64,000 nt of DNA from assembly GCA_000004985.1 (NCBI GenBank), contig GG738861.1; one strand, 5' to 3'. A program made the position numbers and the translations under genes. The notes under the pieces are model-generated. The model ran no database searches and was not told the DNA's origin. It was given only the letters and a program-made list of their open reading frames with translations. Below are positions 26,501-56,969 of the stretch, piece by piece. The DNA comes from Naegleria gruberi (lineage: Eukaryota). Position 1 is the first letter of the stretch. Every line of letters starts with the position of its first letter.

Positions 26501-28425
26501 CCATTCAAACACTTGGCACAATTACTGGAAGCATCAAAGTTTCCATAACAAGTACATGAGCCATCATTATTACAGTAACCTTTAGAGGAACAATTACTAA
26601 CACTATTACAAGTAATTGAGCAACTGGAACCAACAAATCCACTAGCACATTGATCACAATATGTACCAACAAAGTTACCTTCACAAACACATTTCAAATT
26701 AACACAATTACCTCTGGAATTACAAGTTTGAACTCTATCACAAACTGGAGTGTTACAATTAGCTCCTGAATAATCAAGTGAGCAGCTTGAACAAGATTTA
26801 CCATCATTGTAATTAATTGGACATGAACACTTATTAGGAGCTGAACAAATACCACGAGATGAACAAACACTAGAGCTTGACTTGTCAATTCCATAACAGC
26901 TAAACGTTTGACAAGCTGTACCATTATAACCTTCAGAACAATGACAGATATTTGGAGCAATACATGAACCCTTTCCAGAACAAACTCTATTATCGGTAGC
27001 ACTAATTTCAAAACAAACGGGAATATCACAATTATCACCAACAAAACCATCAACACATTTAGAACAAAACTTGGATGAATCAAAGTTACCATTACAAGAA
27101 CAAACATCCTTTGAAACACATGAACCTCTATACGAACATCCTCCTTGAGATTCACTCAATCCATTACAAGTAGTGTATTGACATCTATCACCAGTGTAAC
27201 CACTATTACATTCACAAGTATTTGGGGCAGTACAATTACCTTGTTTGTTACAACCAGATGTACCTGTTTGATTGTTACAAAGTGGAATAGTACAATCACT
27301 ACCAGTATATCCACTACCACAAACCATAACACTACACTGAGAACCAGTAAAACCTGGATAACAATCACATTGATCTTTTCCTATACATTTACCCTTACTT
27401 GAACAAACAGATGAAGAATTACTCAAAGTATTAAAACATCTTGTTTCAGAACAAGATGGACCTTCCCAACCACTCTTACATGAACATTGATTTAGTGATG
27501 AACAGTTACCATTAGATGAACAAACACTTGATTGATTGGCCAAAATACCAAAACATGAAGTAATTTCACACAACTTGCCATAGAATCCACTATTACATTG
27601 GCAAGTATTTGGACCAACACATTGACCATTTCTTGAACAAACAGTTTGATTGGAGTTGGTTAAACCAGAACAAGAATATGTTTGACATTCAGAACCAATG
27701 TAACCACTCTTACATAAACAGCTATCAACAGAAACACAAGTTCCTGATCCAGAACAAACAGATGAATCAGTAAAATTCTTTCCAAAACATTGATGAATCT
27801 GGCATTCTAATCCACTGTATCCATTATTACATTGACACATATCTTGAGAAATACAAGTACCTTGATTACAAGCTTCAGCTCTTGGCTTAGTGAAACATGT
27901 GATATTCTTTGAGACACAAGTATTTGGAGCAATACATGTATCGTATTGTCCACAGGATTGAGTTTCGTTAGCCAAATAATTATTGCAAATTGGCATGTTA
28001 CAAACACCAGCAGGTCCATAACCTGATTTACATTCGCACTTGTCAAAATCACTGCAGATACCTTTCGAAAAACAAACTTGAGGTGATTGAGAATCGATGC
28101 CATTACAAGTTGTAAAAGAACAATTGTCTCCGTGGTAATTTGTTGAGCAGATACAATCATCGAGACTAGAACATGAACCATGGGATGAACAAACCTTGGA
28201 ATCGTTAGCTGGAGTACCATAACAGGAAGGAATTTCACAGAATTTTCCAATAAATCCATTAACACATATACAACCGCCATCCAGACATGTTCCATTACCA
28301 TTACAGATATTTTCCAAATGAGTAGATCCACATTTAACTGGTTCTGGTTGTGGGGTTTCCGTTGTTGTTTCATTACAGAATGTTCCATTGATATTTGAGT
28401 TACAAATACAGACACCGTTCAACAA
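23572..28425 (-). CDS. C-terminal ~1600 aa of a giant surface glycoprotein: Cys-repeat and EGF-like modules, long Ser/Thr-rich region, C-terminal GPI-anchor-like hydrophobic signal
   Basis: The ORF begins inside a 43-aa repeat unit (CICNSNINGTFCNETTTETPQPEPVKCGST...), so it is not a real N-terminus. It ends ...SARVNNVAMISFSVSLLVSIMMCLLML, which is GPI-signal-like. It is contiguous with 28510..31428 except for two 1-nt homopolymer deletions. Confidence 0.7.
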   Translation of the reverse strand: MLNGVCICNSNINGTFCNETTTETPQPEPVKCGSTHLENICNGNGTCLDGGCICVNGFIGKFCEIPSCYGTPANDSKVCSSHGSCSSLDDCICSTNYHGDNCSFTTCNGIDSQSPQVCFSKGICSDFDKCECKSGYGPAGVCNMPICNNYLANETQSCGQYDTCIAPNTCVSKNITCFTKPRAEACNQGTCISQDMCQCNNGYSGLECQIHQCFGKNFTDSSVCSGSGTCVSVDSCLCKSGYIGSECQTYSCSGLTNSNQTVCSRNGQCVGPNTCQCNSGFYGKLCEITSCFGILANQSSVCSSNGNCSSLNQCSCKSGWEGPSCSETRCFNTLSNSSSVCSSKGKCIGKDQCDCYPGFTGSQCSVMVCGSGYTGSDCTIPLCNNQTGTSGCNKQGNCTAPNTCECNSGYTGDRCQYTTCNGLSESQGGCSYRGSCVSKDVCSCNGNFDSSKFCSKCVDGFVGDNCDIPVCFEISATDNRVCSGKGSCIAPNICHCSEGYNGTACQTFSCYGIDKSSSSVCSSRGICSAPNKCSCPINYNDGKSCSSCSLDYSGANCNTPVCDRVQTCNSRGNCVNLKCVCEGNFVGTYCDQCASGFVGSSCSITCNSVSNCSSKGYCNNDGSCTCYGNFDASSNCAKCLNGWFGSNCDFQINSNSFVFTSTGGSIIGEVKSSLLKQSDCSDVISSSDLSLIGSDAKCILNSATSSLEIILGTSANIVPGNSLRLFKFPGSAETLSVTVSSGTFVALPPSVNLVSDKSSVSKCDTLYLDASGSVSSDRRALLFSWYVTNGPTVGEMNALNTYLSGVKTSSAIVDFSSSSLSAISGGSFIIQVTVTTAFSKVATSSVTVNVVSNPVPTLSLSEGISVTYMIGSTIVLTPVIKFPKCYSGNYQTDYTYSVDTSSASKSVVTPKSSNNLFAIGKSFTDINKEGDYYFILRAVSDNANDAFLPFKVTAVAQDLTIQFNISDITQSTQDSLDFSVAVVDPSSTSDSETVTITCFDIVNIKSCSSPNLNQRTFSTFLSAGEYKYTATVVKGSRSASTNLIVKAKSVPKNTLIRASITSNSDLSLVSPSSDLYLTYSSLEVLSSPTFFWFSDKFDLSSLTQTSSFIKIPKSLLSAGASYSISLNITDGSKNGVATTSVNVNSPPTRGIFEASPQSGVALSTLFELKCGNGWTDSQLPLTYQFFYYDDISSSWTALTERTETRSTRIKLPSSSSSQLRLKVAVYDSKLAFTESEISVAVTQPTTTQAVNSIESTAKETPTLASVSAVIKVVSSIAGATAEQKAEIAKLTSNMILSYLDNQAKAQSVASENTNSASSKLSMISSGTSSLEYIVDDIISKMITNLAQTAANAASSDEVKLATELLTKAKEAADKFYRFIVAKGVSKRSFSNSDITNIQATYDSLSSALVKDTVADLPANYIVANQTTTYSRKVNIATLNNLQDIINGNKFKMAAKFSDLVSNYKTLILKVKSSSGGVTNSVSDALDISLAEKSAVTVSSSSSIAELTFSTSKDITMARSVSAYDVYCQVYNSATNNYQLSTSCSVISKTSNSVTVSVSSTGKYLLTAQPKAIPTPVVSPKSSPAPFIPKVSARVNNVAMISFSVSLLVSIMMCLLML

Positions 28426-28429
28426 GTTC

Positions 28430-31250
28430 CATTATAATAGCAATTATTTTCTTCAACGGTTGATCCACAGTTTAATTGGTTCAGTGGAACAGAGTATTCT
28501 GGTGTGCTTTCATTGCAAATGTTCCGTTAACGTTGTATTGCAAATACAAATACCATTTACACATGTTCCGTTACCATAACAGGCATTTTCTTCCAATGTT
28601 TCACCACATTTAATTGGTTCAGGATGTGGGATAACTGGTTCTGTATTTGTTTCATTGCAATATGTACCATTAATGTTTGAATTACAAATACAGACACCAT
28701 TAATGCAAGTACCATTTCCATAACAAATATTTTCATATTCAGTGATACCACATTTAACAACTGGTTCTGGTTGAGGTGTTGGAGTTTCAGAAGTCTCATT
28801 ACAGAAGGTTCCATTAACGTTTGTATTACAAATACAAATACCATTTACGCATGTTCCATTTCCATAACAATTATTTTCCTCAATGGTTGTTCCACATTTA
28901 ATTGGTTCAGGTTGTGGAATTATTGGTTCAACAATGGTTTCATTACAGAAAGTACCGTTTGAGCCACCTAAACATGAACAAATACCATTCAAACAAGTTC
29001 CATTTCCATAACAATTATTTTCTTCAACGGTTGATCCACATTTAATTGGTTCAGGTTGGGGAATTGGAGTTTCTGGAGTTGTTTCATTACAGAATGTTCC
29101 GTTTACATTAGAGTTGCAAATACAAATACCATTTACACATGTTCCGTTACCATAACAGGCATTTTCTTCCAATGTTTCACCACATTTAATTGGTTCAGGA
29201 TGTGGAGTAACAGGTGCTGATGTTGTTTCATTACAATATGTACCATTAATGTTTGAATTACAAATACAGACACCATTCAAACAAGTTCCATTTCCATAAC
29301 AATTATTCTCATCTTCAGTGAAACCACATTTAACAACAGGTTCTGGTTGAGGCTCATGACTTGTTTCATTACAGAAGGTTCCATTAACGTTGGTAATACA
29401 AACACAAATACCATTCATGCAAGTTCCATTTCCATAACAATTATTTTCTTCAATGGTTGATCCACATTTAACTGGTTCAGTTGGAATTTGAGGTTCTGAA
29501 GCAGTTGTTTCATTACAGTATGTTCCGTTCATACCCTCAACACAGATGCACAATCCATCAAGACATGTGCCGTTACCATAACAATTGCTTTCTTCCTGAG
29601 TTGTACCACAAATAATTGGTTCAGGTTGTGGAGAATCAGAATTTGTTTCATTGCAATATGTACCATTTACGTTTGAATTACAAGCACAGACACCATTGAT
29701 GCAAGTTCCATTTCCGTAACAGTTGTTTTCTTCCATGGTTGATCCACATTTAACTGGTTCAGGATGAGGAATTGGAGTTTCAGGAGTTGTTTCATTACAG
29801 AATGTTCCGTTTACCTTTGAATCACAAACACAAATACCATTTAAACAGGTTCCATTACCGTAACAGTTATTTTCTTCCAATGTTTCACCACATTTGACAG
29901 GTTCTGGTTCTGGAGTAACTGGTTCTGTAGTTGTTTCATTGCAGAATGTGCCATTAACATTCTCAAAACATACACACAAGCCATCAACACAAGTACCATT
30001 TCCAAAACAGTTATTTTCTTCTTCGGTCGAACCACATTTAACTACTGGTTCTGGTTGAGTTGGATCTTGAGTTGTTTCGTTACAGAATGTACCATTCACG
30101 CCAATAAAACAAATACAAACACCCTCAATGCATGTACCGTTACCATAACAAGTATTTTCTTCTATAGTTTCACCACATTTGACAGGCTCAGGAACAACTG
30201 GATCTGGAGATGTTTCGTTACAGAATGTACCATTAATATTCTCGTTGCAAACACACAAACCATCAACACATGTTCCATTTCCGTAGCAGCTATTTTCTTC
30301 TGTTGTTTCGCCACATTTAATTGGTTGAGTTGGAACTTGAGGTTCAGTAGGATTAGTTTCGTTACAGAATGTACCATTAACATCTTGATTACAAACACAG
30401 AATCCATTTACACAACTTCCATTGTTGTAGCAATTATTCTCTTCCAAAGTTTCACCACATTGTAAAGGTTGTGGAATTTCAGGTTCTATATTTGATTCAT
30501 TACAGAATGTACCATTTGCGCCTTCTTTGCAAATACAGGAGCCACCAATACAAGTGCCATTACCATAGCAGTTATTTTCATCTTCTGTAAAACCACATTT
30601 AACTGGCTCTGGTTGAGTTGGGATTTCAGGAGCTGTTTCGTTACAGAAAGTACCATTAGCGCCTTCAATACAAACACACAGTCCATCAAGACATGTTCCA
30701 TTACCATAACAATTACTTTCTTCCTGAGTTGTACCACAAATAATTGGTTCAGGTTGGCTGGGAACTGGACTGGTTTCGTTACAGAATGTACCATTACTAC
30801 CTTCATTGCAAGTACAAAAACCATTCTCACACGTACCATTGCCATAACAATTATTCTCTTCTTCTGTAGTACCACATTTAACCAATTCTGGTTGTGGTTC
30901 CATGCTGAAGGTTTCATTACAAAATGTACCATTAACATTCTCGTTACAAATACACAAACCATCGACACATGTACCATTACCATAACAAATATTTTCATCT
31001 TCTGTGAAACCACAGTTAACTGGTTGAGTAGGGACTTGTGGTTCTTGAGTTGTTTCATTACAGAATGTACCATTCACACCTTCAATACATATGCAGAAAC
31101 CATCGACACATGTACCATTACCATAACAATTTTGTTCTTCCAATGTTTCACCACAAGTGGTAATGGTATCATTACAGAATAAACCAATGAAACCTTCTGA
31201 ACATTGACAAACACCACGAGTACAATTACCATTAGAATAGCAAGATTGTT
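28430..31250. repeat. Tandem array of about 24 x 129-bp coding repeats (43-aa Cys module)
   Basis: The periodicity is visible in both the nucleotide and the protein sequence. Units are roughly 70-95% identical. Confidence 0.85.
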
Positions 31251-31428
31251 CATCTAATGTTTCACCACAGAAAACATCCTGACATTCCATTGTACCCAAG
31301 AGGTCACATGTCTGGGACAATAAACATTCAGTGTCTGAACTGCATGTTGCTGATACGAGACCAACAGCAGCAATTACAGAAAGTACAATTAAAAGTATTG
31401 TTGTTTTGAACAGCAAGTTACTTGCCAT
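28510..31428 (-). CDS. N-terminal part of the same giant gene: signal peptide plus about 22 tandem 43-aa six-Cys repeats, VKCG.T.EEN.CYGNGTC..G.C.C....NGT(F/Y)CNET, with Pro/Thr/Glu linkers
   Basis: ATG at 31428 begins MASNLLFKTTILLIVLSVIAAVGLVSA, a signal peptide. The repeats are highly regular, about 129 nt each, with three N-glycosylation sequons per unit. Confidence 0.75.
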   Translation of the reverse strand: MASNLLFKTTILLIVLSVIAAVGLVSATCSSDTECLLSQTCDLLGTMECQDVFCGETLDEQSCYSNGNCTRGVCQCSEGFIGLFCNDTITTCGETLEEQNCYGNGTCVDGFCICIEGVNGTFCNETTQEPQVPTQPVNCGFTEDENICYGNGTCVDGLCICNENVNGTFCNETFSMEPQPELVKCGTTEEENNCYGNGTCENGFCTCNEGSNGTFCNETSPVPSQPEPIICGTTQEESNCYGNGTCLDGLCVCIEGANGTFCNETAPEIPTQPEPVKCGFTEDENNCYGNGTCIGGSCICKEGANGTFCNESNIEPEIPQPLQCGETLEENNCYNNGSCVNGFCVCNQDVNGTFCNETNPTEPQVPTQPIKCGETTEENSCYGNGTCVDGLCVCNENINGTFCNETSPDPVVPEPVKCGETIEENTCYGNGTCIEGVCICFIGVNGTFCNETTQDPTQPEPVVKCGSTEEENNCFGNGTCVDGLCVCFENVNGTFCNETTTEPVTPEPEPVKCGETLEENNCYGNGTCLNGICVCDSKVNGTFCNETTPETPIPHPEPVKCGSTMEENNCYGNGTCINGVCACNSNVNGTYCNETNSDSPQPEPIICGTTQEESNCYGNGTCLDGLCICVEGMNGTYCNETTASEPQIPTEPVKCGSTIEENNCYGNGTCMNGICVCITNVNGTFCNETSHEPQPEPVVKCGFTEDENNCYGNGTCLNGVCICNSNINGTYCNETTSAPVTPHPEPIKCGETLEENACYGNGTCVNGICICNSNVNGTFCNETTPETPIPQPEPIKCGSTVEENNCYGNGTCLNGICSCLGGSNGTFCNETIVEPIIPQPEPIKCGTTIEENNCYGNGTCVNGICICNTNVNGTFCNETSETPTPQPEPVVKCGITEYENICYGNGTCINGVCICNSNINGTYCNETNTEPVIPHPEPIKCGETLEENACYGNGTCVNGICICNTTLTEHLQ

Positions 31429-32134
31429 ATTTTTTTCAATTCGAATAGTTTTAGCATGGTAGCTAATAAGATTTTAATGGCAAGGGAATTGTTGTGTGAA
31501 ATGAGCCAACAAGTCACGTTACAATTTCATAGGATATTTGTTGAACAGTGCATTTGCCAAGTACCAACAAGATTAAATTGCTTAAATAAGCCAACAACAT
31601 GTCAACAATCCTCGTCACGGAATTTTCACAATTACGAATTCGTCTTGCATCATCATTCAAGTTGCAATTCCTCACTAAATCACGGGAAACACAGTTTCCT
31701 CTTCTTGCCATAAAGTGACCACATCTTTCACACCTTCTAACATTGGCATTTCCACTTCTGTCCTCACTAAACGAACAAAAGGAAGTTTCCAATGTTTGTG
31801 GATGTAAAATTTCGATGGAGCAAAATTAACTTCCTATTAAGAGTCGTTTTAAATCATGATGAACTTGTCTCATTTCATGTTCAGTATTCATTAGCAACAT
31901 TCAATTCCGAAACGTGATAAAAACTGTAAACTTTTCATCTACAGTTTCTTACTTACTTTCCGAGCCAAATTTTCTCATCAATTCTCCTGGTTAAAGAGGG
32001 GTGGCCGAAGAATTATTGAGGCAACACCATATTTCATCCAACAAACGACAACTACAGTACGGCTCAAACAACAATTATTGGCTGGAAAGAAAGCACCCCT
32101 CAAGATTTAAATGAATTTCAAAGCCGAAAAGATG

Positions 32135-32620
32135 AAAAAAAAAATATTCAACAAATAATCCGTTGTGACTTGCTGATTTTCAGAGTGATTTCACATCATG
32201 AAAGCACCAAACTTTCACATCAGCATCTCAACATCATCCGAATAGTAATAACAATCATTGTTTTTTATTAGTGGATTATTATCAGCAAATAGGAATTTAT
32301 TTTTAAAGTTGGAAAAATACCAGTTGGTGAACCATCATATGAGCACTCACCAACCATCATCATTATTGTTTTCCATCAATATAATAATAGTATTTGTGGA
32401 AATTAATTTTTAGTAATGTAATTTTGGTTGAAGAGCCAAAATTTTCACTAAATCCATCATCACTGCTGAATCTACTGAACAAGTTGGAAAACTGTGAATG
32501 TAGTATTGTTCGGAATTGTCAATAGGAGGCAGGAGAACTTTCTCTGATTCTACTACTATTTAAAATAGATAATAAACATCATATTTATTATCAGATTTTC
32601 ATCATGTTCTATTGCCCTAT
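32135..32620 (+). repeat. Dispersed ~0.5-kb non-coding repeat, copy 2
   Basis: See copy 1. It has the same orientation and also lies in a 5'-flanking/intergenic position. Confidence 0.8.
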
Positions 32621-32739
32621 CATCATTGCAATAATATAATTAATGAAAGACTTCCAATACGGCCCAAACCATTTGCACCACCCAAACAATCAAGTTTGCG
32701 ATTGAAAGATTTTCAAGTTTGCGATTGACTCTTCAACAC

Positions 32740-34310
32740 ATAAAGTAAAGTATTCAGATTGATTTTAATTTTACATAATAGTTTTATTACAAACAAGTTT
32801 TTGTTGTTTGTTTGGGAGAATTGAATTGTTTCAAAATCAATAGATTTAGAAACACTTTCTGTGGACAATACCTGGACCGGCATCCTCATATTCTTCCTTG
32901 GTGATCCACATTTGTTGGAAAGTGGACAATGAAGCCAAGATGGAACCACCAATCCAGACAGAGTACTTTCTTTCAGGTGGAGCAACAACCTTAATCTTCA
33001 TGGAAGCTGGAGCCATAGCAGTCAATTCCTTGGTCATTCTTTCAGCAATACCTTCGAACATAGTAGTACCACCAGACAAGACAACGTTACCGTACAAGTC
33101 CTTTCTGATATCAATATCACATTTACCAATAGAGTTGAAAGTAGTTTCATGAACACCAGCAGCTTCCATACCAATGAAGTTTGGTTGGAACAAAACTTCT
33201 GGACATCTGAATCTTTCATTACCAACAGTGATAACATTACCGTCTGGCAATTCGTATGACTTTTCAACAGATGATGATTCAGCAGCAACCTTCATTTCAG
33301 CTTCGAAATCCAAAGCAATATAACAGAGCTTTTCCTTAATATCTCTGACGATTTCTCTTTCAGCAGTAGTATTGAATGAGTAACCTCTTTCCATCAAAAT
33401 CTTCATCAAGTAATCAGTCAAATCACGGCCAGCCAAATCCAATCTCAAAATGGCGTGTGGCAAAGCATAACCTTCATAAATTGGAACAGTGTGGGAAACA
33501 CCATCACCAGAGTCCAAAACAATACCAGTGGTTCTACCAGAAGCATACAAGGACAAGACAGCTTGAATAGCGACATACATAGCTGGAACTGAGAAGGTTT
33601 CAAACATAATTTGAGTCATCTTTTCTCTGTTTGCCTTTGGATTCAAAGGAGCTTCAGTCAACAAGACTGGGTGTTCTTCTGGAGCAACTCTCAATTCATT
33701 GTAGAAAGTGTGATGCCAGATCTTTTCCATATCGTCCCAATTGGTAACAATACCGTGTTCAATTGGATACTTCAAAGTCAAAATACCTCTCTTTGATTGA
33801 GCTTCATCACCAACATAGGCATCCTTATTACCCATACCAACCATAATGGACTTTTGCTTTGGTCTACCAATAATTGAAGGGAAGACAGCTCTTGGAGCAT
33901 CATCACCAGCAAAACCAGCTTTACACATACCAGAACCGTTATCGACAACGAGGGCTTGAACGTCTTCACAGAATGACATTTTATAGATTATTTGAATGGA
34001 TTTGTTTTTTTTGATTTTTAATTGATGATTTGTGTGTTAAAAAAATATTTAAATGAAAAATTAATGAAAGAATGATTGATGTGATTGATGGCAAGTCAAA
34101 TTGAAGTTTTAAAAAACTATTTTAGAGGTCATTTTTTAAATGTGGAAAGTCAAGTGAAGAAGAACAACTTTACAATATGACTTTTCATTCTTTTCATTCA
34201 ACACATCATCAAAATTACTAGCAATCAACTGTAAAATTTAACACATCAAACATTGCTTTGTCAACTTACTGTAATTTTCAACGTGGAAAAAATTCATCAA
34301 GTTTGAATGA
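32740..34310. repeat. Left arm (~1.57 kb) of an inverted duplication containing an actin gene
   Basis: This arm is the reverse complement of 40160..41730. The flanks match (for example ctattttagaggtcattttttaaatgtggaaagtcaagtgaagaagaac) and the 3' flank matches for ~100 bp past the stop. Confidence 0.85.
32846..33979 (-). CDS. act: Actin (377 aa, intronless)
   Basis: Sequence begins [41 protein letters not shown]...IVHRKCF. It is a canonical conventional actin, closest to amoebozoan actins. Confidence 0.95.
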
Positions 34311-35072
34311 AACCAACTTCGTCATCATGGAGGAACTAACAGCAACCAGGAATTAATTTATTGTTAGGATTGTGGTCAAGAGACGAAATTAACAAAATTG
34401 TCTCACCCTATATATTCATTGATGCATCAGTGATTCGCATTCTTGTTGTGGTGAGTCCTCTATGGACTTTGATTGGATTGATACTTGGTAATCGGATTCT
34501 CCTTCTTAATACCTCACAAATGGGAATAAGTTTTCTTCTGATTTTCAATTCCCAAGACTAGTATTTATTGTGGTCAGTCTTTTTGGCCTTACACTTGATA
34601 AGTGTGATCTACTGGATTTGGCCAAAATCATCAATAACACTGCCTCGTATCTGCTTGTTGGAATGCCAATTTTTTTAAGTTGGAAGTGCTTGTTGTTATT
34701 AAGAGAGTAATCCAAACAATAATCATTCCTCAATGGTTGTGATATTTTTGATATTTTAGACACAAAGTGGAATTTAATTTGGCTTCAGGTAGGCCTAATT
34801 GCTCTTTTTCCCAACATGAAGATTGTTGGAAACAATACTATGGAGAAAGAATAATAGATTTGGAATTGACCTATTTGGTCCTAATTGCTTGTGGATATTA
34901 TGAGTTTTTTATTGTTTTCTTAAAATTTGAGTTTCACCAATATTTGGATATTTTATTTATTACAAAGCCATACTACGGGGCAAAACATCAATCAACAAGT
35001 GAATGTTCAAGTAATTTCAATAATTGAGCAAAGTTCATCCATCACAATAAATTATTTACAATTCATAAAAAA

Positions 35073-35975
35073 ATGTCTCAAACAACAGTAAAGAATCGTT
35101 GCCCTCACAGAGTTTGGTATCGATTGTATGAATCCGATGATGTAAACTTTACAGGAAAAGACATTGCATCAGGTGAACAGCAAACTGTGGAGGGTGAATT
35201 TAAATCAGTGAAGGGATTCAAGTGGGAGAGAGGAGAGGATGAAGTTTGGGAACCAACTTTTAAAAGTCTATTAGAACCACAAGATGCTTGGAATTATCAC
35301 GTTGATTTGACTTCATTGTTTGGATGTAGACCTGCTAGCTCAATCAAAGTGTTCATGGCATGTTTGGCTGGTCCAGCAGATCCAATGACAAGGAATGACA
35401 TTATTCTCATCGATAAATTACATAAAGAGATTGGTGTACCAAGGGAGAATATTTGGATGTTTTTGGAGAGACAATGTACACCAAATGCAATTTATGAATC
35501 ATTGAAGGTGGCTGCCGAAATTTGTAATGATGAAAATGATATCCTATTTGTTTATTTGGGAGGACATGGAAGCAGAAAACAAAGTGAAGTTTATCAAGAA
35601 AGTGGAAACAAGTTTGAATATAATTTGGGAACTTGGGGAGGATCTACTCCTAGCTCACTTGTTTTGAAAGCAATTCAAAATGTAAAGTGTCCTGTTTTTA
35701 TGGTAGTGGACTCGTGTTATAGTGGCCAAATGATTGATGATGCAAAGAGTTATTTCCTTCATGCACCTCTTGCTCATGAGTTGTATGTTTTAACTTCAAC
35801 TCAGAATGACAAGTCAGCTCAAACTGGCTGGAGACTAATTCAAATGTTGATTGATATCATGATTGAAAGATCAAAGAGTATTACAATTACTCCTACTCTG
35901 ATAGGAAAGACAATTTCAGAAAATTTGAGAACCCCCTATGAAGAACAACGATCTCAATTCCAAATTATTGAATAA
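35073..35975 (+). CDS. Caspase-family (C14) peptidase, metacaspase-type catalytic dyad, with an uncharacterised N-terminal ~150 aa
   Basis: The catalytic His lies in ILFVYLGGHGSRKQ and the catalytic Cys in PVFMVVDSCYSGQMIDD. A p10-like STQNDKSAQ matches the metacaspase SGCQDNQTSAD region. Single exon with a real ATG at 35073. Confidence 0.6.
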   Translation: MSQTTVKNRCPHRVWYRLYESDDVNFTGKDIASGEQQTVEGEFKSVKGFKWERGEDEVWEPTFKSLLEPQDAWNYHVDLTSLFGCRPASSIKVFMACLAGPADPMTRNDIILIDKLHKEIGVPRENIWMFLERQCTPNAIYESLKVAAEICNDENDILFVYLGGHGSRKQSEVYQESGNKFEYNLGTWGGSTPSSLVLKAIQNVKCPVFMVVDSCYSGQMIDDAKSYFLHAPLAHELYVLTSTQNDKSAQTGWRLIQMLIDIMIERSKSITITPTLIGKTISENLRTPYEEQRSQFQIIE

Positions 35976-36366
35976 GTAACTGGCCCACAACAAATCTCCC
36001 AAAATCATATTCGAATGATGAACGAGATCTACAAAATGAGAAATAAACATTAGTCTCCATTATGTCTGTAAACTGTCCCATTCAAGGAAGGGTTCAGAAA
36101 GATATGGAAAATTTGTCAAACAGTCAAACTGCATTATTGCAATGTATTTCAAGCAATTTATTTCATGTTCATTTCTTGAGATATTTGGTAGTAATGTAAA
36201 ATGTGTTTCCAATTATTAAATATCTATGTAACATTATAATTATGAACGAAATCACTTCAGTTAAATTTTGACGATGAAAACAATTCTGAAAATAGCATAA
36301 CTTTAAAAAACATAAATTTTTGCCATCAACTTTTAATGTCCAACCATCAAATCAACATAAAAAAAA

Positions 36367-37116
36367 ATGCAACCCATTCAACCACCAAACAAACAATCAT
36401 CATCAGCAACACCTTCTTTCCTTAATTCTCAGCAACGGAACCAACATGATGAAAAACAACCTGTGAATGATAATGAAGAACAAGATGAACTAAATTTATC
36501 AATTTATGAAGAGGATAATATCAGCACAGATGATGAATGTCATGATAATGGAATTTCCAATTTATCTTTGCATTCCAATCATCAAGAAGATGAAACAGAG
36601 GATGCATCTCCACTTGAGGAATTGAACAAATTCGTCTTCAACATTCATGCTTTCAGAGGTGAATTGTTAATGAATGAGACAAGTAATAATGCCACTATTC
36701 AAGTTTACAAAAATACAAATTATAGCTGTAGAAATTCAAATTTCAAGTTACATGATATTCCCTTGATATTCTTGGATGGTTGTAAAGATAATGTATTTTA
36801 TTGTAAGAAACATTGTGAGAAAGTGTATTCACATTCGAATCTCCATACCACAATTGACAGATTAGGTGGATCCACAACAAGAATTACAGCATTTGGACTT
36901 TCTTTATTGAAGAAGGCAATGGTGCTGATAAACAAGGAATCGAATAGTTTTGATACACTGCTATCTAATCATGCTCAACAGCTGGCTTTGGTTTCGTATA
37001 CAGGATTGATGCTAATGGCTAATAAGAAGAAGAATCAACCTGAATGGGACGAAACTGAATTATCTTCCTTTTACAAGCACAAGTTTATTATTGTATTGAA
37101 GGGAATTACTTTATAA
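36367..37116 (+). CDS. Hypothetical protein (249 aa) with an acidic/Ser-rich N-terminus
   Basis: ATG-started ORF with coding-like codon usage. No recognisable domain. Confidence 0.45.
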   Translation: MQPIQPPNKQSSSATPSFLNSQQRNQHDEKQPVNDNEEQDELNLSIYEEDNISTDDECHDNGISNLSLHSNHQEDETEDASPLEELNKFVFNIHAFRGELLMNETSNNATIQVYKNTNYSCRNSNFKLHDIPLIFLDGCKDNVFYCKKHCEKVYSHSNLHTTIDRLGGSTTRITAFGLSLLKKAMVLINKESNSFDTLLSNHAQQLALVSYTGLMLMANKKKNQPEWDETELSSFYKHKFIIVLKGITL

Positions 37117-37153
37117 CTCAAATTGTTGTAATCATAAATTCGAATATTAAAAA

Positions 37154-37513
37154 ATGTCATATCTTCAACTCCCCACAGAGATGCACCACCAGATTCTATC
37201 CTATTTATCACCTTTTTGTGAATTATTCCACAATCAAATTGGTGGAAAACACTTGGATCCATTTATAAAGTTCATTCCGATAATATTGAACTTTCGATTG
37301 ATTCATCCAAATTATTCGAAATTAATTTCAAAATATGTAGATGAATTTTGTTGGAGTTTATTTGGAAATATGATGGATACTTATTCGATAGAACCCAAAG
37401 AAATTGATTTATTGAAAATTAAATTCACCAAAATTGGAATTGTGAAAAGTTTTGGTTCCTTTATTCATCTGATTCGAACAAGAGAAAAACAAATCCGATT
37501 CATCAGAAATTAA
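37154..37513 (+). CDS. F-box-like N-terminus (LPTEMHHQILSYLSP); a small protein, or the N-terminal part of a fusion with the downstream GTPase domain
   Basis: The ATG at 37154 is real. The LP.E....ILSYL.P match to the F-box consensus is moderate. The downstream frame opens at 37473, before this ORF's stop. Confidence 0.4.
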   Translation: MSYLQLPTEMHHQILSYLSPFCELFHNQIGGKHLDPFIKFIPIILNFRLIHPNYSKLISKYVDEFCWSLFGNMMDTYSIEPKEIDLLKIKFTKIGIVKSFGSFIHLIRTREKQIRFIRN

Positions 37514-38180
37514 ACTCTTTCTACTGGGAAGTGTGTACAGTGGCAAAACCTCAATTATTAAGAGATTTGTTTATAATCAGTTCACACAAGGTTATGAATC
37601 ACCTTCCTGTTTTTATGAAGAATTCAAACAAACAATTTCTATAGATCAAAGAGAAGAATCCATACTCTTAATAGATTCATTTGGGATCCTTAGTCGTTTC
37701 CTTCCATTTGAAGAACGTTATTATTGTAAAAAGATTAATTTCAATGTTTTGGTAATTGTTTGCTCAATGACGGAATATGAAAGTTTGCATGATTTGAAAC
37801 AAATATTGAGGAGATTTGTGGATGATAAGGGATTGAATGCTCCTTGTGTTGTGGCCATTAATAAGTGTGATCTTTTTCATCATTGTGTGGTTGATATAAG
37901 GGAGGTTAATGAAATTGTGGAAAATTTTGGATTGACTGATTATAAAATTATGGAGACGAGTGCAAAAACAGGAAAGAATATTGAAGAATTAGTGGAAGAA
38001 TGTGTTAGAAAGTTTAGAGAACGATTGAGAGATGTAAAAAGTGTTGTAGAACAAGTTCTGTTATTGGATCAAGAGGAGAAAGATGACAGAATGAGTATTT
38101 ACAAGATGGTGTTTATACCTCTTTGCTTTCTTTGGAATTTGATACTAAACTCGATTTTTCTCTGGAAGCTTAATGAATAG
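37473..38180 (+). CDS. Ras-superfamily small GTPase domain (G1 GSVYSGKTS, G4 NKCD, G5 ETSAK) with degenerate switch II (DSFG, no Gln) and no ATG in this frame
   Basis: The frame is open from 37473 (FEQEKNKSDSSEIKLFLLGSVYSGKTSIIKRF...). The ORF-track start at 37533 is a GTG. The domain is probably joined to the 37154 ORF by a frameshift or intron. Confidence 0.5.
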   Translation, partial: FEQEKNKSDSSEIKLFLLGSVYSGKTSIIKRFVYNQFTQGYESPSCFYEEFKQTISIDQREESILLIDSFGILSRFLPFEERYYCKKINFNVLVIVCSMTEYESLHDLKQILRRFVDDKGLNAPCVVAINKCDLFHHCVVDIREVNEIVENFGLTDYKIMETSAKTGKNIEELVEECVRKFRERLRDVKSVVEQVLLLDQEEKDDRMSIYKMVFIPLCFLWNLILNSIFLWKLNE

Positions 38181-38949
38181 AATCTCACCGACACGGAATT
38201 CACTAGACAAGTTTTCATTATTTTATGAAACAGAAAGGATAACCTTCTTAATGTTTCAAAAGATGCTAATCAAATAATTGGAAATGTTATAATCTATCAA
38301 CATTTCATTCTGTGGATCATCTTCTGAAATTCTGAATTGAATAGCAATGGAGCTTTGTTTAAAAGATAACTTGATAAGATTTGTTAATTAATTATAATTT
38401 ACAATTTTTCATGACTAACGTAATTCTCAACAATAACATACCAATTTGAAATTTGGTAAAACTGCAAATAGAATATTTTATTGGAAAGAAAAATAAAGGA
38501 GTCTAACCTTTGACTATTTTCTCGATGGAATTAGGAGATAAGGTTTTGAAAATTGGCAGATATGTTGATTACATACCAGTCTTCATATTATGAAAAAAAT
38601 TTTAAATTAAATAGTGAAGATAAAGTTAAAAATTAATCTCGAGTGCCGGGAATTGAATTTCCTAATTTGGAAGATGACTTCAACAACCAAATAACAATAA
38701 TAAATTGGGTTATTAAATTAATGTTTATTAAATAGTGACCGTTAGGTCACTGATTGTTAATTAATTATTGATGATGATTTGTTGTTGAACAGATACTAAC
38801 CACCACCGATTGTTGTCATAATATTAAACACAGAGTAATCACCGTGTCGCCAAATTCCTTGATAATTATTCATAACTGTAACTTCTTGATCAAAAGGCAC
38901 TCGAGCAATAAACAATTTGATTTCACACAGCCAAAACTCTCGTTCATAC

Positions 38950-39092
38950 TTTGGGTACCGGGAATGAAATTTCCAAATAAGGAATGACCGATATCATTCA
39001 ACTATTACTAACTCATACTCACACTAACAAAACAAATTGAACCCGGGTCGCCAGAGTGACAGTCTGGAATGCTACCACTATACCACACCCGA
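38950..39092 (-). tRNA. tRNA-Asp(GUC) gene interrupted in the T-loop by a 66-bp insertion (probably non-functional)
   Basis: The 5' part at 39092..39035 reads TCGGGTG TG GTATAGTGGTA GCAT T CCAGA CTGTCAC TCTGG CGAC CCGGG TTCAATT. After the insertion, 38968..38950 supplies TTCATT CCCGG TACCCAA A. The acceptor stem pairs 6 of 7. Confidence 0.6.
38969..39034 (-). mobile_element. 66-bp insertion in the tRNA-Asp T-loop; a short member of the family that also interrupts tRNA-Gly
   Basis: The insert is TGTTTTGTTAGTGTGAGTATGAGTTAGTAATAGTTGAATGATATCGGTCATTCCTTATTTGGAAAT. Its first ~40 nt and its GGAAAT 3' end match the ends of the 1334-bp Gly insertion. Confidence 0.5.
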
Positions 39093-40159
39093 TTTCATAT
39101 TAAGTGATAAATATTATTGAATATATAGACGTATTTTCAACAATTTTAAATAATTCTACCAACACCAATCCTGTGGTGAGATCCAGTTTCAAACCCTTTT
39201 AAAGGCATCCATTGCCCATCAGTAATTATAAACGAGTTGATCTCACAATAGTTCCTCGGACAATATTCCAATTTCCTTCAACACGTATTCTTCTTCCAAT
39301 CTCTCAAGCCTTTCCATAAATTGCAATACAATAATGATTCAGAAGTATGAATAAATTCAATAGTATCACATTTACATATAGTACATTTAGAACATGATCA
39401 GCACAGCCATTAGTTTCCCAAATTCCACTCTCTGAAAATCTTAAAGATTCAGTACTATCAGTCTCGTGTAGAAATTAACAAGAATACTGTGATAATTCAT
39501 TCACTCACAGAATTCAATTCAGTAGGTGAAAAGACAGGAAAGTTAATTTGATCTACCTTAAAATTGGTTTCCATCTTTGTCTAGAATATCACCTTAATTC
39601 ATTGAACAAGGGAATTTTCTAGAATATACATGTTAACTTTGCAAGAGCTTATTTCAAAAGATCAACTCTTGACACAAGTGGAAAATTAATCAACTCAAAT
39701 TAACAATGCTGTTCAATCACTGATGTCAAATATTAAAGGGTTCATCCCTATCCCCAATTACTATTCTCTTAAAATCACATAACTTTATCCAAAATGATTT
39801 CCAGTGTTTTCCCTTCTTCATTCCAGAATTAACTGAAGAAATATCATCCACTCAACTAATCATCTCAATAATACATGTGTTTATCTCAAATTATAATGTA
39901 AATATATCCACAGCACACAATGTTGCAACTTGAATTGATTGGAAGAGTAGAGTCACTTTGGGATGATTAAATTTGTTGTAGCCTCTCCACTAAATGTTAA
40001 ACCAACAACAACAATAATACCATCCAATGATAATCAACAATTGACGGCCCTCCAACTAGAAAGGGACAAGAAATAACGATGTGATATTACTATCAATATG
40101 TATGTGGTGGGAATTGTGTGAGCAGATGCAAGAATATTGTAGATGAAGGTTTTCTATTT

Positions 40160-41730
40160 TTTATCAAACTTGATGAATTTTTTCCATGTTGAAAATTACA
40201 GTAAGTTGTTAATTGCAATGTTTGCTGATTGTTTGCTCGTAATGTTTGATGATGTGTTGAATGAAAATAATGAAAAGTCATATTGTAAAGTTGTTCTTCT
40301 TCACTTGACTTTCCACATTTAAAAAATGACCTCTAAAATAGTTTTTTAAACTTCAATTTGACTTGCCATCAATCACATCAATCATTCTATCATTAATTTT
40401 TCATTTAAATATTTTTTTAACACACAAATCATCAATTAAAAATCAAAAAAAAACAAATCCATTCAAATTCTATAAAAATGTCATTCTGTGAAGACGTTCA
40501 AGCCCTCGTTGTCGATAACGGTTCTGGTATGTGTAAAGCTGGTTTTGCTGGTGATGATGCTCCAAGAGCTGTCTTCCCTTCAATTATTGGTAGACCAAAG
40601 CAAAAGTCCATTATGGTTGGTATGGGTAATAAGGATGCCTATGTTGGTGATGAAGCTCAATCCAAGAGAGGTATTTTAACTTTGAAGTATCCAATTGAAC
40701 ACGGTATTGTTACCAATTGGGATGATATGGAAAAGATCTGGCATCACACTTTCTACAATGAATTGAGAGTTGCTCCAGAAGAACATCCAGTCTTGTTGAC
40801 TGAAGCTCCTTTGAATCCAAAGGCCAATAGAGAAAAGATGACTCAAATTATGTTTGAAACTTTCTCAGTTCCAGCTATGTACGTCGCTATTCAAGCTGTC
40901 TTGTCCTTGTATGCTTCTGGTAGAACTACTGGTATTGTTTTGGACTCTGGTGATGGTGTTTCCCACACTGTTCCTATCTATGAAGGTTATGCTTTGCCAC
41001 ACGCCATCTTGAGATTGGATTTGGCTGGTCGTGATTTGACTGATTATTTGATGAAGATTTTGATGGAAAGAGGTTATTCATTCAATACTACTGCTGAAAG
41101 AGAAATTGTCAGAGATATTAAGGAAAAGCTCTGTTATATTGCTTTGGATTTCGAAGCTGAAATGAAGGTTGCTGCTGAATCATCATCAGTTGAAAAGTCA
41201 TACGAATTGCCAGATGGTAATGTTATCACTGTTGGTAACGAAAGATTCAGATGTCCAGAAGTCTTGTTCCAACCAAACTTCATTGGTATGGAAGCTGCTG
41301 GTGTTCATGAAACTACTTTCAACTCCATTGGTAAATGTGATATTGACATCAGAAAGGACTTGTACGGTAACGTTGTCTTGTCTGGTGGTACTACTATGTT
41401 CGAAGGTATTGCTGAAAGAATGACCAAGGAATTGACTGCTATGGCTCCTGCTTCAATGAAGATTAAGGTTGTTGCTCCACCTGAAAGAAAGTACTCTGTC
41501 TGGATTGGTGGTTCCATCTTGGCTTCATTGTCCACTTTCCAACAAATGTGGATCACAAAGGAAGAATATGAGGATGCCGGTCCAGGTATTGTTCACAGAA
41601 AGTGTTTCTAAATCTATTGATTTTGAAACAATTCAATTCTCCCAAACAAACAACAAAAACTTGTTTGTAATAAAACTATTATGTAAAATTAAAATCAATC
41701 TGAATACTTTTTGTGTTGCGAAAGAGAAAT
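40160..41730. repeat. Right arm of the actin-containing inverted duplication
   Basis: Reverse complement of 32740..34310. Confidence 0.85.
40478..41611 (+). CDS. act: Actin (377 aa), second copy, protein identical to the 32846..33979 copy
   Basis: The protein is identical. Off-frame ORFs differ at a few residues, so the nucleotide differences are synonymous. Confidence 0.95.
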
Positions 41731-42004
41731 TGAAATCTTTAACAAACTTCGAATAGGTTCAAAGTTATTATAGACAAAACTTGGAAATGAACTAAATTAA
41801 TCTTCCCTTAAATCAAAAAGATTCTCATTTACTCTCAAGCCCTTAAATAGTCATCATCAACATGTTGACTCTCTCTCGAATATTCGTCATCACCAACAGC
41901 ACGGAAGTTTAGGATGACGCACAAAAAGATATTATTCGTAAATAATGTACTTATGAATAAAATATATTTGGATCTATTCAAAAGGATCTAAAATAGAAAA
42001 AAAA

Positions 42005-44138
42005 ATGAGCAAACAAGAATTGCAGGAAACCATTGAAAAATCAACTAGCAAGACTGCTGCTGATGAGAGCAGTTTTGAAGAGGAAGAACATGAGGATATC
42101 ACTGCAGATGAACAAGTATTGCAAGATTTTTACAAGAAGGAAGCTCAGATTAAACAAGCTACTAAACCAAAGGAAGAAAAGCCGGTTGCTGCTTCTACTT
42201 ATGAAGATCAGGGAGAAGGTGCACATATGATTGAAATGCCATTAGATAAAACTAAGCTTTCCAAGACTGATATTAGGTCATTGCACAAAGATGAAGTAAA
42301 ACAAGCTAGAAAGGAATTGGACAAGCTTCCGAAGCCTCAAACTTTCCCAAATCATGCTGAAATTAGTTTCTTTGGTGCTTCAGGTACTGTTACTGGTAGT
42401 AAGCACATGATTACTTATGGATCTTTGAATGCTTTGATTGATTGCGGAATGTATCAAGGTTTGAAGGAACTTAGGTATGTTTTTTAATTCTTTCATTTGT
42501 TTTAATTAGATTAATTATCAAAGAGAGAGAAACTGGAAATTAATTTCATCATCAAAACCTGTTGAAACAATGTGTGATGCCATCATTATTACTCACTCTC
42601 ACTTGGATCACACTGGTTATCTTCCAAGGTATGTTTTTTATACAATGTTTTGATACAAATGAAAATTAAAACTATCAAAAATCATCAATCGGAATGAATA
42701 ATTTAATCTTCAATCATCATAATAATATCAAAATAGAATGGTTGCTCTTGGATTTACTGGACCAATCTACATGACAGAACAAACATTTAATTTGACCAAA
42801 CTAATCTTGTTGGATTCTGCTCGTTTACAAGAAGAAGATGCTCACTATGCCAATCACAAAGAAACTACTAAACATGAGGTTGCCCTTCCACTCTATTCCG
42901 AAGAAGATGTTCTCAACTGTTTCAAGTTGGTGAGAACTGTCAAGTATGGAGAAAAAATTGTTGTTAAAAGTAGATTGGATGAAGACAAATTCAGCTTTAA
43001 ATACTTTAATGCAGGACACTTGTTGGGATCATCGTTTGTTGAAATTACTCTTGACACAAAGGAAAAGATTATCTTTTCAGGAGATTTGGGAACTTTCCAC
43101 ACCTCCACTCCAATGCAACAACAACCTCAATTACCAATGGGAGCTGATTATGTTATTTGTGAAGCTACTTATGGTGGCAAGTCACACATTGATTTTGCAA
43201 CTGGTAGAGCTGCTGAGGATCAAGATTACATTATTGAAACTAAGGTTAAACCAGCGTTGAAACAAGCTGTTGAACATATTGTGGAAAATGATGGTGTAAT
43301 TCTTATTCCAGCTTTTGCCATTGGTCGTTCTCAAACTATTGCTTATCACTTGTTAAAGATGATGAGAGAGAAGGAAATTCCAACACTTCCTGTCCACATG
43401 AACTCTCCAATGTCAGTTGAAGCTCTTGATTTTTATCAACAATATTTATTGGACGAACATCAAAAGGATGCACACGAAATTTTGAGAGATGTCATTTGCC
43501 ATAATAGTGCTAAGGAATCTAAGGAACTTCACAAAAAGCTCAAGGATGGTTATTCTAAATGTGTCATTATCAGTAGTAGTGGTATGATGACAGGTGGTCG
43601 TTGTTTATTCCACTTTGAAGAATTGGCTCCTCATGAAAAGAACGTTCTCTTATTGAGTGGTTTCCAAGCTGAAGGTACAAGAGGTAGAGACTTGCTTAAT
43701 GGTGTCAGAGATATCAAATTATTGGGCAAGACTGTCAATGTTAAATGCCAAGTCATGCAAGTCCAAGGTTTGTCTGCTCACGGTGATACTGATGATGTTA
43801 TTAAATGGATTGAGGCTGCCAAAAATCCAAAACCAAAGATGGTTTTCGTTGTCCACGGAGAACCAACCTCACTCCGTAGTATGGCTAGAGAAATTTGTGT
43901 TGAATTGGATGTTAATGCTCTCGTTCCAAAGAGAGGTACAACATTCCACATGAGAACTGAACTCTCCTTCAGTCACAGTAGAAGAGCTAGTGTTGTTTCA
44001 ACCAATAACAGTTTACAAGATGTCATTTCAAGCAATATGCCTGATATTCCAAAACTTGGAAAGACCAATATGGTTCACGTGATGTATGCTGGTATTATTT
44101 TAATTGCCTTTATTGCCTTCCTTTTAAGATTCTTTTAA
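42005..44138 (+). CDS. Metallo-beta-lactamase fold / beta-CASP family hydrolase (RNA-processing nuclease-like) with a K/E-rich N-terminus and a C-terminal TM anchor; 3 exons
   Basis: Exons are 42005..42475, 42510..42628 and 42736..44138, separated by GTATGT...TAG introns that I traced by hand. Motifs are GASGTVTGS, HSHLDHTGYLPR (HxHxDH), FSGDLG, CEATYGG and VVHGE. The sequence ends MVHVMYAGIILIAFIAFLLRFF, a tail-anchor-like segment. Confidence 0.7.
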
Positions 44139-55251: not shown

Positions 55252-56663
55252 TGCGTCGACCGGGAATTGAAATTTCCTTTTTTGGAATTCATTTAACTTT
55301 TAATTTTATGATGAAATTATGAATTATTTATTTTAATATTATTCATGATGTGAAACATCATGTTGAATTCTGTTCATTATTTTTAATTCATGATGTGAAA
55401 CATCATGTTGAATTATTAACAAATGTTGTTCTTCAATTTTTCATTGAATGTTGTTCTTTCAATGAATGTTGGAATAAGTGTCCAGTATATGATAGAATTG
55501 TTAATACAAGTAAGTTTTCTATTATTTTATATTTATTAATTGACTCACGGGTAATGGAATTTCCTTTTTTGTAAATCATCATGATTGATGATGATTGATG
55601 ATGATTAAATAATAATAATTTATTATTTTATAGATGATGGTACAATTAGATTTGTTAGTACATATCCTAATTGTATTTTAAAGAAAGAAAATTCACCAAC
55701 TAAAATTGAAGATATTATTCGTGAATATGAAGATGTAAAAGTTGTTTTAAATGAATTAGGTAAATCAACAACAAAAATTTATTCATCAGATACAACAAAA
55801 CATATGAATTTCCTAAAAGTTTTATTTATTTATGTAATGGTAATATTAAATATGATCAATCATTAAATATATCACAAGGAATTTATACAATTAAAATTCA
55901 AGATGATGAACATGATCACAAATATTATTATTTATTCGGAAGAGGTTTATTATTTCTATCAATTACATTACAAATGATTCCAACATTTAGTTTAAACAAG
56001 TATTATTATGAAATTGTATTGAATGATTTAAGTAACACATATTTTGATAAGAATGAAATTATTCAATATAAAATTGAAATTTTGCCATCAAATATTATTC
56101 AACAATATTCTAAACGAAAGTTTCTTGTTAGAAAAGATAGTCAAAAGAACTCAAGATTTATTACATATCAACCTGACGCTCAATCACCATCAAAGAAAAC
56201 AAAGAAGAATAACATTATTGAAAGTGATATTGAAGATTTCGATTGCAATATTAAAGATATTGATGATTGGGTATAGGGAAACGGAATTTCCTAATTGGGA
56301 ATGTCATCACACAATAAATTAAATTTATTATTTATTCATTGATGTTCACAAACTGTGAATTAACACATTACATGATGAAACAATTCAAACATTTACTCAA
56401 ACTTTAAACATTAACCATCGGGTAACGGATTTTAATACATGTACTAGTATGTTTATTAATTGGTCGACGCACATAAATTTAAATAAACAAAATTAACAAG
56501 ATTTTAAACAAAATCCTACATAGAGTTGGAGAACGGGAAATGAAATTCCCAAATTGAAATTGAGAAACAACTATTCATTTCACAATAATTCATACTATCA
56601 AAATGAATTGAACCCGGGTCACGGCGATGGCAACGCCGTATTCTACCACTAAACCATCGACGC
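55252..56663 (-). tRNA. tRNA-Gly(GCC) gene split by a 1334-bp insertion in the T-loop
   Basis: The 5' part at 56663..56606 reads GCGTCGA TG GTTT AGTGGTAG AATA C GGCG TTGCCAT CGCCG TGAC CCGGG TTCAATT. The 3' part at 55271..55252 reads TTCAATT CCCGG TCGACGC A. T-stem and acceptor are perfectly complementary, and TTCAATT is present at both junctions. Confidence 0.8.
55272..56605 (-). mobile_element. 1334-bp insertion in the tRNA-Gly T-loop, probably composite. Contains AT-rich ORFs and several internal 'GGAAAT + tRNA 3'-end-like' junction motifs
   Basis: It starts CATTTTGATAGTATGAATTATTGTGAAATGAATAGTTG..., similar to the Asp insert start, and ends ...CCAAAAAAGGAAAT next to the duplicated TTCAATT. 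There are no terminal inverted repeats. It carries a 100-aa ORF (55974..56276) and palindromic tcatgatgtgaaacatcatg direct repeats at 55343 and 55389. Confidence 0.55.
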
Positions 56664-56969
56664 TTCTTGTTAAGATATTAAGGTTCCTTAATTTAATATA
56701 AGGAATATCCAAAATGCTTAAAGTACAACACAACAAGAATTGAGTATTCGTTTGAACATGCTGTAAAATATTTCAAATTATGCTAAGATCATTTGATGTA
56801 TTTAATGCCATAGGGCATTGAGAGCCATCATTTGAAGATTCAAATAGTATGTTCTTGATTTTATCTGATAAAGCACAAGAATAACATTTCATCCACTAAA
56901 TTTTATAAATGTTGACTGTGTTACATAATAGTATTTAATTATTATTGAAATGAGGATAACAATAAATTA

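Follow-up and report, generated by a model that had tools for sequence, protein, structure and literature searches.

An unannotated gene of Naegleria gruberi encodes a predicted caspase-fold protein from a small family related to metacaspase-like proteases

The stretch of DNA analysed here, from the amoeboflagellate Naegleria gruberi (the window: 64,000 nucleotides of contig GG738861.1, GenBank assembly GCA_000004985.1) carries on its plus strand, at 35073-35975, an uninterrupted open reading frame (ORF) that runs from ATG to TAA over 300 codons plus the stop. Its translation is 100% identical, over 300/300 amino acids, to N. gruberi XP_002678478.1 (EFC45734.1; UniProt D2VB52; NAEGRDRAFT_66093), which databases label "predicted protein". 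The ORF is a real conserved gene, far beyond a chance reading frame, because it has full-length colinear homologs (E-values, E, down to 1e-112, 35-60% identity, 97-100% coverage) and a fold predicted with high confidence. Its G+C content (0.367; 0.272 at third codon positions, GC3) matches that of neighbouring genes, and a tblastn search found no paralog within the window. No segment of the protein is hydrophobic (maximum KD19 1.27), and neither a signal peptide nor other secretory features were found in it.

The gene had been singled out by a reading of the letters alone (the sequence-only reading), which proposed a compact metacaspase-type peptidase in a dictyostelid. The ORF is present exactly as that reading described it, and so are the three strings on which it drew: YLGGHG (His165 codon, 35565-35567), VVDSCYSG (Cys215 codon, 35715-35717) and STQNDKSAQ (residues 242-250). 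The dictyostelid origin, by comparison, was wrong, as the identity with the Naegleria protein demonstrates; the genome of Dictyostelium discoideum has a G+C content of roughly 22%, and the window, at ~0.34, lies far above that. With this premise falls the argument for novelty, which held that D. discoideum has only a paracaspase. No D. discoideum ortholog, nor any named dictyostelid protein, was present among the homologs found, and the analysis produced neither a paracaspase assignment with a clear D. discoideum ortholog nor a failure to support the C14 fold.

An AlphaFold2 model of the Naegleria protein (predicted local distance difference test score, pLDDT, 92.6; predicted template modelling score, pTM, 0.91) divides it into two domains (Table 1). 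The larger, C-terminal one is predicted to contain six core strands, assigned by DSSP to residues 91-97 (b1), 127-131 (b2), 157-163 (b3), 208-213 (b4), 237-241 (b5) and 295-299 (b6), with a small beta-hairpin region at residues 166-193, after His165. Conservation across the family extends from F83-G84-x-R86 to the C-terminus, and a profile-profile alignment with the nearest outgroup spans residues ~89-300. For these two reasons the additional N-terminal domain comprises ~80 residues, and not the 150 of the sequence-only reading, and the conserved catalytic domain begins at residue ~83-89. The extra domain noted by that reading is present, in the form of a generic beta-sandwich. This module is swappable, with one supported subclade (93% bootstrap) carrying two Cys-rich C-x-G-x-H-P-V-x-G-x-x-G-C repeats in its place. 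No Pfam match to a prodomain of the Pro-rich or zinc-finger type was found in the Naegleria protein.

Table 1. Positions in the window of the gene, its predicted domains and conserved motifs, and the flanking actin arms; conservation counts refer to 21 aligned family members.
Feature	Coordinates	Strand	Remarks
Complete intronless gene	35073..35975	+	N. gruberi NAEGRDRAFT_66093 / XP_002678478.1 / D2VB52; from the ORF list, identity and colinear full-length homologs
N-terminal accessory domain, residues 1-81, predicted seven-stranded beta-sandwich	35073..35315	+	Conserved motifs N-x-C...W-[YF]-R, G..W-E, W-x-P-x-F
Catalytic domain, residues 83-300, predicted caspase-hemoglobinase fold	35319..35972	+	Six core strands in the AlphaFold2 model
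R107-N108-D109, after b1	35391..35399	+	R 21/21, N 20/21, D 21/21; ND aligns with N24-D25 of AtMC4
Y161-L-G-G-H165-G166, predicted catalytic His, end of b3	35553..35570	+	His 20/21, flanking Gly 21/21; aligns with GHG of AtMC4, AtMC9 and GSU0716
D213-S-C215-Y-S-G218, predicted catalytic Cys, end of b4	35709..35726	+	D 21/21, S 21/21, C 20/21, G 21/21; aligns with DSCHSG of AtMC4
S242-TQNDKSAQ-T251-G252-W253, loop after b5	35796..35831	+	From column counts; motif common to outgroup consensus S....ST..W
Left arm of inverted duplication	32747..34213	-	Actin gene 32846-33979 (-) plus ~230 bp upstream; from inverted repeats I1-I3 and the actin ORF
Right arm of inverted duplication	40245..41710	+	Actin gene 40478-41611 (+)

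The caspase-hemoglobinase (clan CD) fold of the modelled catalytic domain can be regarded as secure. The model forms an alpha/beta/alpha sandwich that can be superimposed on solved clan CD peptidases, with the hallmark His-Gly placed after b3 (G164-H165-G166) and the Cys after b4 (S214-C215), in agreement with the C14-like fold and His/Cys dyad first proposed. Against known structures, the comparison gave figures of 17.1 for AtMC9, 16.1 for AtMC4, 15.7 for legumain, 14.8 for caspase-9, 14.6 for MALT1, 14.4 for GSU0716, 14.0 for both GPI8 and Yca1, 13.4 for Raptor and 12.1 for gingipain. In Foldseek, by contrast, the top ranks went to uncleaved caspases and MALT1 (E 5e-5 to 1e-3), ahead of metacaspases. 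The predicted structure alone does not choose a subfamily.

Among the motifs of the catalytic domain, D109 is the equivalent of the S1-pocket Asp95 of Trypanosoma brucei MCA2 (TbMCA2), in its GCxND motif, and D213 that of Asp211, the two residues underlying Arg/Lys specificity in that enzyme (McLuskey & Mottram 2015, PMC4357240); TbMCA2 residues were mapped via the outgroup profile, with the PDB chain index equal to native numbering plus 20. An acidic, metacaspase-type S1 pocket is therefore indicated by alignment, although the invariant Arg107 next to it aligns with TbMCA2 Cys93 and is a residue that metacaspases do not have. Further motifs, FG.R, ACLAGPADP, LERQ and TGW, are invariant and specific to the family. 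The STQNDKSAQ string had been called p10-like; it is part of the loop after b5, in which only S242, A249, T251, G252 and W253 are conserved, and no similarity to the metacaspase p10/280-loop region is detectable.

The family itself is small and occurs mainly in protists, with a single rare clade of bacterial (Verrucomicrobia-type) sequences. While a word-indexed search gave 23 homologs, a profile search run exhaustively over 1.84 billion representatives recovered ~45 family members or fragments, after which the score drops (123 bits at E ~1e-30; ~100 bits for the first core-only matches) to ~6000 proteins matching the core only. In a bootstrapped neighbour-joining tree the family is monophyletic, separated from the outgroup at 100% bootstrap, and the N. 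gruberi protein pairs with homolog P0002 (59% identity, 100% bootstrap) among the eukaryote-type sequences. Named members come from N. gruberi, the diplonemid Namystynia karyoxenos, the fungus Hyaloraphidium curvatum and one Verrucomicrobia metagenome-assembled genome (MAG), the last being the only prokaryotic locus among 185,579 GTDB species genomes. Further members lie on AT-rich eukaryotic metagenome contigs that also carry intron-split genes for Patatin and inositol trisphosphate (IP3)/ryanodine-receptor proteins, RCC1, CTLH and kinases. The Cys-rich subclade, to which the H. curvatum protein also belongs, is encoded on the bacterial contigs L001 and L008, where its neighbours are genes for OmpA, sigma-70 and resolvase. 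A search for viral relatives on IMG/VR contigs returned 77 pattern matches, none of which was confirmed, and no link to giant viruses was found. So patchy a distribution would fit old horizontal transfers, and nothing indicates a recent acquisition in Naegleria.

Individual members show some variation. The H. curvatum protein (P0023, KAI9007604.1) has the bacterial-type Cys-rich N-terminus and is nested, at 100% bootstrap, among the clade on bacterial contigs (P0019-P0022), a placement that suggests either bacterium-to-fungus transfer or assembly contamination. Homolog P0008 has a signal-peptide-like N-terminus. On one AT-rich eukaryotic metagenome contig (L003, G+C 0.245) the family gene occurs in tandem, with a copy at 740-1600 and a partial upstream copy at 3-407, at the contig end.

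Profile comparisons connect the family to C14 proteins. Its alignment with the nearest outgroup by hhalign reached 99.9% probability (E 1.6e-35, 195 columns), and 72/95 of the nearest outgroup proteins are themselves positive for Peptidase_C14 in Pfam (best 1.4e-38), against 22/95 for C13. Within this outgroup (P0050-P0167) stands a large group of C14-positive caspase-like proteins fused to C-terminal Agenet (39/95), Tudor-knot (36/95), MBT or chromo-like modules. All outgroup proteins are named "hypothetical" or unnamed, and a 2012 survey (PMC3501461) of caspase homologs in prokaryotes makes no mention of Agenet/Tudor fusions. When searched against the PDB, the family profile matched Arabidopsis thaliana AtMC4 best (E 1.6e-9; 7.5e-19 for the outgroup profile), followed by AtMC9 (2.5e-4; 1e-11), GSU0716 (7e-4; 6e-12), TbMCA2 (0.04; 9e-15) and GPI8 (0.63; 8e-6). 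MALT1 gave the family profile no match at E<=1 (4e-4 with the outgroup profile), while yeast Yca1 is listed for the outgroup profile only (1.8e-11). The leaning of the sequence-only reading towards metacaspases or orthocaspases rather than paracaspases is upheld by these values. Among other models, the NCBIfam "caspase, EACC1-associated type" was matched below threshold (33 bits against a 140-bit cutoff). PADLOC models supported no assignment to a defence system and gave only a weak generic "caspase" match, at E 5.6e-4 with the Naegleria protein and 8e-8 with that of the MAG.

Judged from these profiles, the family is a distinct sister group of the metacaspase-like/orthocaspase C14 proteins, related to metacaspases without being one. 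Klemencic & Funk 2017 (PMC5756287), using the nomenclature of Choi & Berges 2013, define metacaspase-like proteases and orthocaspases as C14 homologs with a p20-type core only. The family agrees with this description in having a p20-type core, a His-Cys dyad, no metacaspase p10 and optional accessory domains. "Metacaspase-like protease" is its best nomenclatural home under that scheme, with eukaryotic members called metacaspase-like and bacterial ones orthocaspases. Like those proteins, the family combines a compact single catalytic domain with variable accessory domains and includes dyad-less pseudo-variants, and its nearest sequence neighbours are the C14-positive proteins with Agenet/Tudor-knot modules. 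Unlike them, it forms its own clade with its own motifs and an N-terminal accessory domain (a beta-sandwich in eukaryotes, Cys-rich repeats in bacteria).

With metacaspases proper (C14B; A. thaliana MC4 and MC9, TbMCA2, Yca1) the family shares the best PDB profile matches, the G-H-G and D-S-C-[HY]-S-G motifs and both S1 aspartates. It differs from them in several ways. The metacaspase Ca2+ site consists of four Asp (D173, D189, D190 and D220 in TbMCA2; PMC4357240); at the equivalents of D173, D189 and D190 the family has no conserved acidic columns (S194/S195 in N. gruberi), and only the D220 equivalent, D222, is acidic, in 11/21 members. The segment between the His and b4 is only ~33 residues long. 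Instead of the eight-stranded metacaspase sheet, the model has six core strands, with just one helix between b4 and b5, as a predicted strand count rather than a three-dimensional topology, so that the two extra strands appear absent. Similarity to AtMC4 and AtMC9 in hidden Markov model (HMM) alignments ends at ~221-226, just after the Cys helix and short of the p10 region, and no long linker is present. A formal metacaspase assignment, as first proposed, does not hold in view of the missing Ca2+ site and extra strands, the Foldseek preference for caspases and MALT1, and a Pfam C14 score below the gathering score.

Caspases and paracaspases (C14A; MALT1) offer a different set of parallels, namely the compact six-stranded core and the top Foldseek matches. 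The family's beta-sandwich directly beside the protease domain recalls the immunoglobulin (Ig) domains of MALT1. However, the family has no death-fold domain, no QACRG-type motif and no significant profile match to MALT1 or caspases, and its S1 residues are acidic, of the metacaspase type, where caspases have Arg/Gln/Arg. The paracaspase signature of MALT1-like death and Ig domains, MALT1 affinity and a D. discoideum-type ortholog was not found.

Taken as a whole, the evidence favours, with a probability of about 70%, a soluble protein of ~34 kDa with an N-terminal sandwich and a clan CD domain, belonging to a small protist/bacterial family that is sister to metacaspase-like C14 proteins, and most likely an active, Ca2+-independent peptidase. 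The Naegleria protein would probably be cytosolic because it lacks a hydrophobic segment. In the predicted structure, the beta-sandwich of residues 1-81 packs against the compact clan CD domain at 83-300, which most likely acts as a cysteine endopeptidase through His165 and Cys215. A basic residue (Arg/Lys) at P1 is the leading guess because both metacaspase S1 aspartates are kept (D109, D213), with Arg107 making this preference uncertain. Control is probably independent of Ca2+, given that the four-Asp site is absent, as are the two additional strands which in metacaspases block the dimer interface and hold the enzyme as a monomer. It may instead operate via the N-terminal domain and/or via caspase/paracaspase-style dimerisation across a free b6 edge. 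Dimerisation or pseudo-dimerisation is plausible because caspases and paracaspases have the same free edge, and because tandem fusions of intact and degenerate domains exist in the family. The N-terminal sandwich, confidently packed according to the pTM, may serve substrate recognition or autoinhibition.

Several observations weigh against this interpretation. The Naegleria protein falls short of the gathering score of Pfam Peptidase_C14 (PF00656; 19.2 bits, E 0.001, against 21.4), and its score for C13 (PF01650; 16.8 bits, E 0.005, against 22.8), likewise insufficient, nearly equals it. Weak matches are divided in the same way across the aligned members, with 7/21 to C14 (E<=0.01, best 1.9e-4) and 6/21 to C13 (best 2.7e-7). 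The family thus lies outside the curated C14 and C13 models, and of the C14 membership expected by the sequence-only reading it is the profile-level homology to C14-positive proteins that stands, not the Pfam assignment. In addition, the S1 mapping is a transitive sequence alignment rather than a structural superposition, and specificity could be altered if Arg107, which is invariant and adjoins the pocket, neutralises one of the Asp. That a scaffold of this kind can function without catalysis is shown by the dyad-less relatives. Possible dimerisation and a role for the N-terminal domain are read from secondary-structure counts, the pTM and the tandem fusions. Finally, a literature search by accession found no paper that mentions the protein, and one on Naegleria and metacaspases returned nothing specific to D2VB52.

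The alternative that survives best, though it is unlikely, is a non-catalytic caspase-fold scaffold or pseudo-protease, comparable to Raptor or cFLIP, with a conserved His and Cys that would serve binding rather than hydrolysis. Several relatives are conserved despite having no dyad, and catalysis by the Naegleria protein is read from sequence and model. In all dyad variants seen, however, namely P0014, P0030, P0037 and a single half of each tandem protein (P0026, P0033), the loss of His is coupled to that of Cys, the pattern expected if both residues act as a unit in a working dyad. His, Cys, the flanking Gly and both S1 Asp are intact in N. gruberi and in 20/21 aligned members. The tandem proteins P0026 (539 amino acids) and P0033 (414 amino acids) are fusions of two family domains, one with His and Cys and the other without both, the degenerate halves carrying GGCG/DSAFSG and GGTG/STSFSG. 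Their arrangement recalls caspase-8/cFLIP pairing or the pseudo-dimers of separase.

An improbable second alternative sees the gene as a recent foreign acquisition, the cargo of a mobile element bounded by inverted actin copies. The inverted repeat around the gene, noted by the sequence-only reading, is real, and the gene does lie between its arms, which are 98-99% complementary. The distribution of the family is patchy (Heterolobosea, a diplonemid, a fungus, other protists and 1/185,579 prokaryotic species), and no synteny beyond the gene itself was found with the contigs of three homologs (L002, L003 and L005), including that of the closest non-Naegleria homolog. Nevertheless, the composition of the gene matches that of its neighbours, and the 6-kb spacer between the arms contains ordinary host genes as well, among them a Ras-family GTPase ORF at 37533-38180 (+), together with unannotated ORFs. 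Neither a transposase nor a tRNA nor any terminal feature turned up, viral relatives are absent from IMG/VR contigs, and the Naegleria protein groups with eukaryote-type members rather than the bacterial clade. The interrupted tRNA claimed beside the gene was not recovered either, as neither ARAGORN (with and without introns) nor Rfam (E<=0.1) detected a tRNA in 28000-44000; only a relaxed threshold produced implausible calls there, with "introns" of 233-956 nucleotides.

Improbable, too, is a C13-type enzyme, that is, a legumain/GPI8-like asparaginyl endopeptidase or transamidase. The S1 pocket of legumain is of mixed charge, and the invariant Arg107 near S1 can be likened to it; the weak Pfam C13 matches described above point the same way. 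Profiles place the family much farther from solved C13 enzymes than from C14B, given the family profile values for GPI8 and AtMC4 and an outgroup that matches metacaspases 10^6- to 10^13-fold better than GPI8. Moreover, the active-site motif DSC[HY]SG is of the metacaspase and not the legumain type, and a secretory signal is lacking in the Naegleria protein. The least probable alternative, a canonical type I-like metacaspase too divergent for Pfam (Ca2+-dependent, monomeric, Arg/Lys-specific, its N-terminal region a removable prodomain), can draw on the shared motifs and S1 aspartates and on the ordered region that TbMCA2 likewise has before b1 (PMC4357240), and founders on the missing acidic cluster, extra strands, known prodomain types and p10 similarity and on the Foldseek ranking.

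The preferred reading of an active, Ca2+-independent peptidase might be taken further. One tentative and rather doubtful extension is a previously unrecognised clan CD lineage that joins a metacaspase-type acidic S1 pocket to a six-stranded, Ca2+-independent core able to dimerise, is controlled by its N-terminal sandwich and, in certain species, by pairing of active and degenerate domains (P0026, P0033), and has moved between Verrucomicrobia-type bacteria and unrelated protist and fungal lineages. In structure and function, such a lineage would stand midway from metacaspases to caspases/paracaspases.

More generally, caspase-fold proteases of protists provide raw material for arguments on how regulated cell death arose. 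Surveys that rely on PF00656 (e.g. PMC5982838, which included N. gruberi) would miss D2VB52 because its score is below threshold. A compact family with metacaspase-like S1 residues and a predicted caspase-like six-stranded core is a data point on the divergence of C14 subfamilies, and an unannotated Naegleria gene is flagged as a probable protease. The sequence was already public, if unannotated; what is new is a small clan CD family beside the metacaspase-like proteases, with its own N-terminal module and a compact, predicted six-stranded core without the Ca2+ site. A large diversity of clan CD proteins in microbes is already known. Nothing is overturned, and the family adds modestly to an enzyme superfamily that is well known, being useful for annotation and caspase-fold surveys and not surprising to a specialist. 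There is no dictyostelid metacaspase here, which was the surprise first proposed.

The surroundings of the gene offer some further observations. The two actin genes are complete, intronless and arranged head to head ~6 kb apart, with ~230 bp of upstream sequence in each arm, and the 98-99% identity of the arms indicates recent duplication or ongoing gene conversion. Both actin coding regions contain sub-threshold Rfam matches to mir-3533 (33089-33172 and 41285-41368; 32-33 bits against a gathering score of 104), which are almost certainly a spurious similarity to actin-derived sequence. Just outside the spacer lies a beta-CASP/RMMBL (CPSF73-like) ORF at 42738-44138 (+). The sole tRNA of the window is a tRNA-Gly(GCC) at 56593-56664 (-).

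At the left edge of the window, positions 1-554 consist of 92 nearly perfect tandem copies of ACCCAA (98% matches), and GC skew over 1-2000 is strong (-0.50). The array has the look of a telomeric repeat, C-strand, marking the left end of a chromosome; a literature check for a published Naegleria telomere repeat found nothing. If the array is telomeric, the actin inverted duplication and the caspase-like gene would be subtelomeric, ~33-41 kb from the chromosome end. Between the array and the left actin arm, at 23572-31428 (-), lie very large ORFs of 1617 and 972 amino acids, and the interval 28222-31269 comprises ~20 tandem units of 138-144 nucleotides that encode teneurin/integrin-like epidermal growth factor (EGF) repeats (Pfam EGF_Teneurin, E 3.7e-66).

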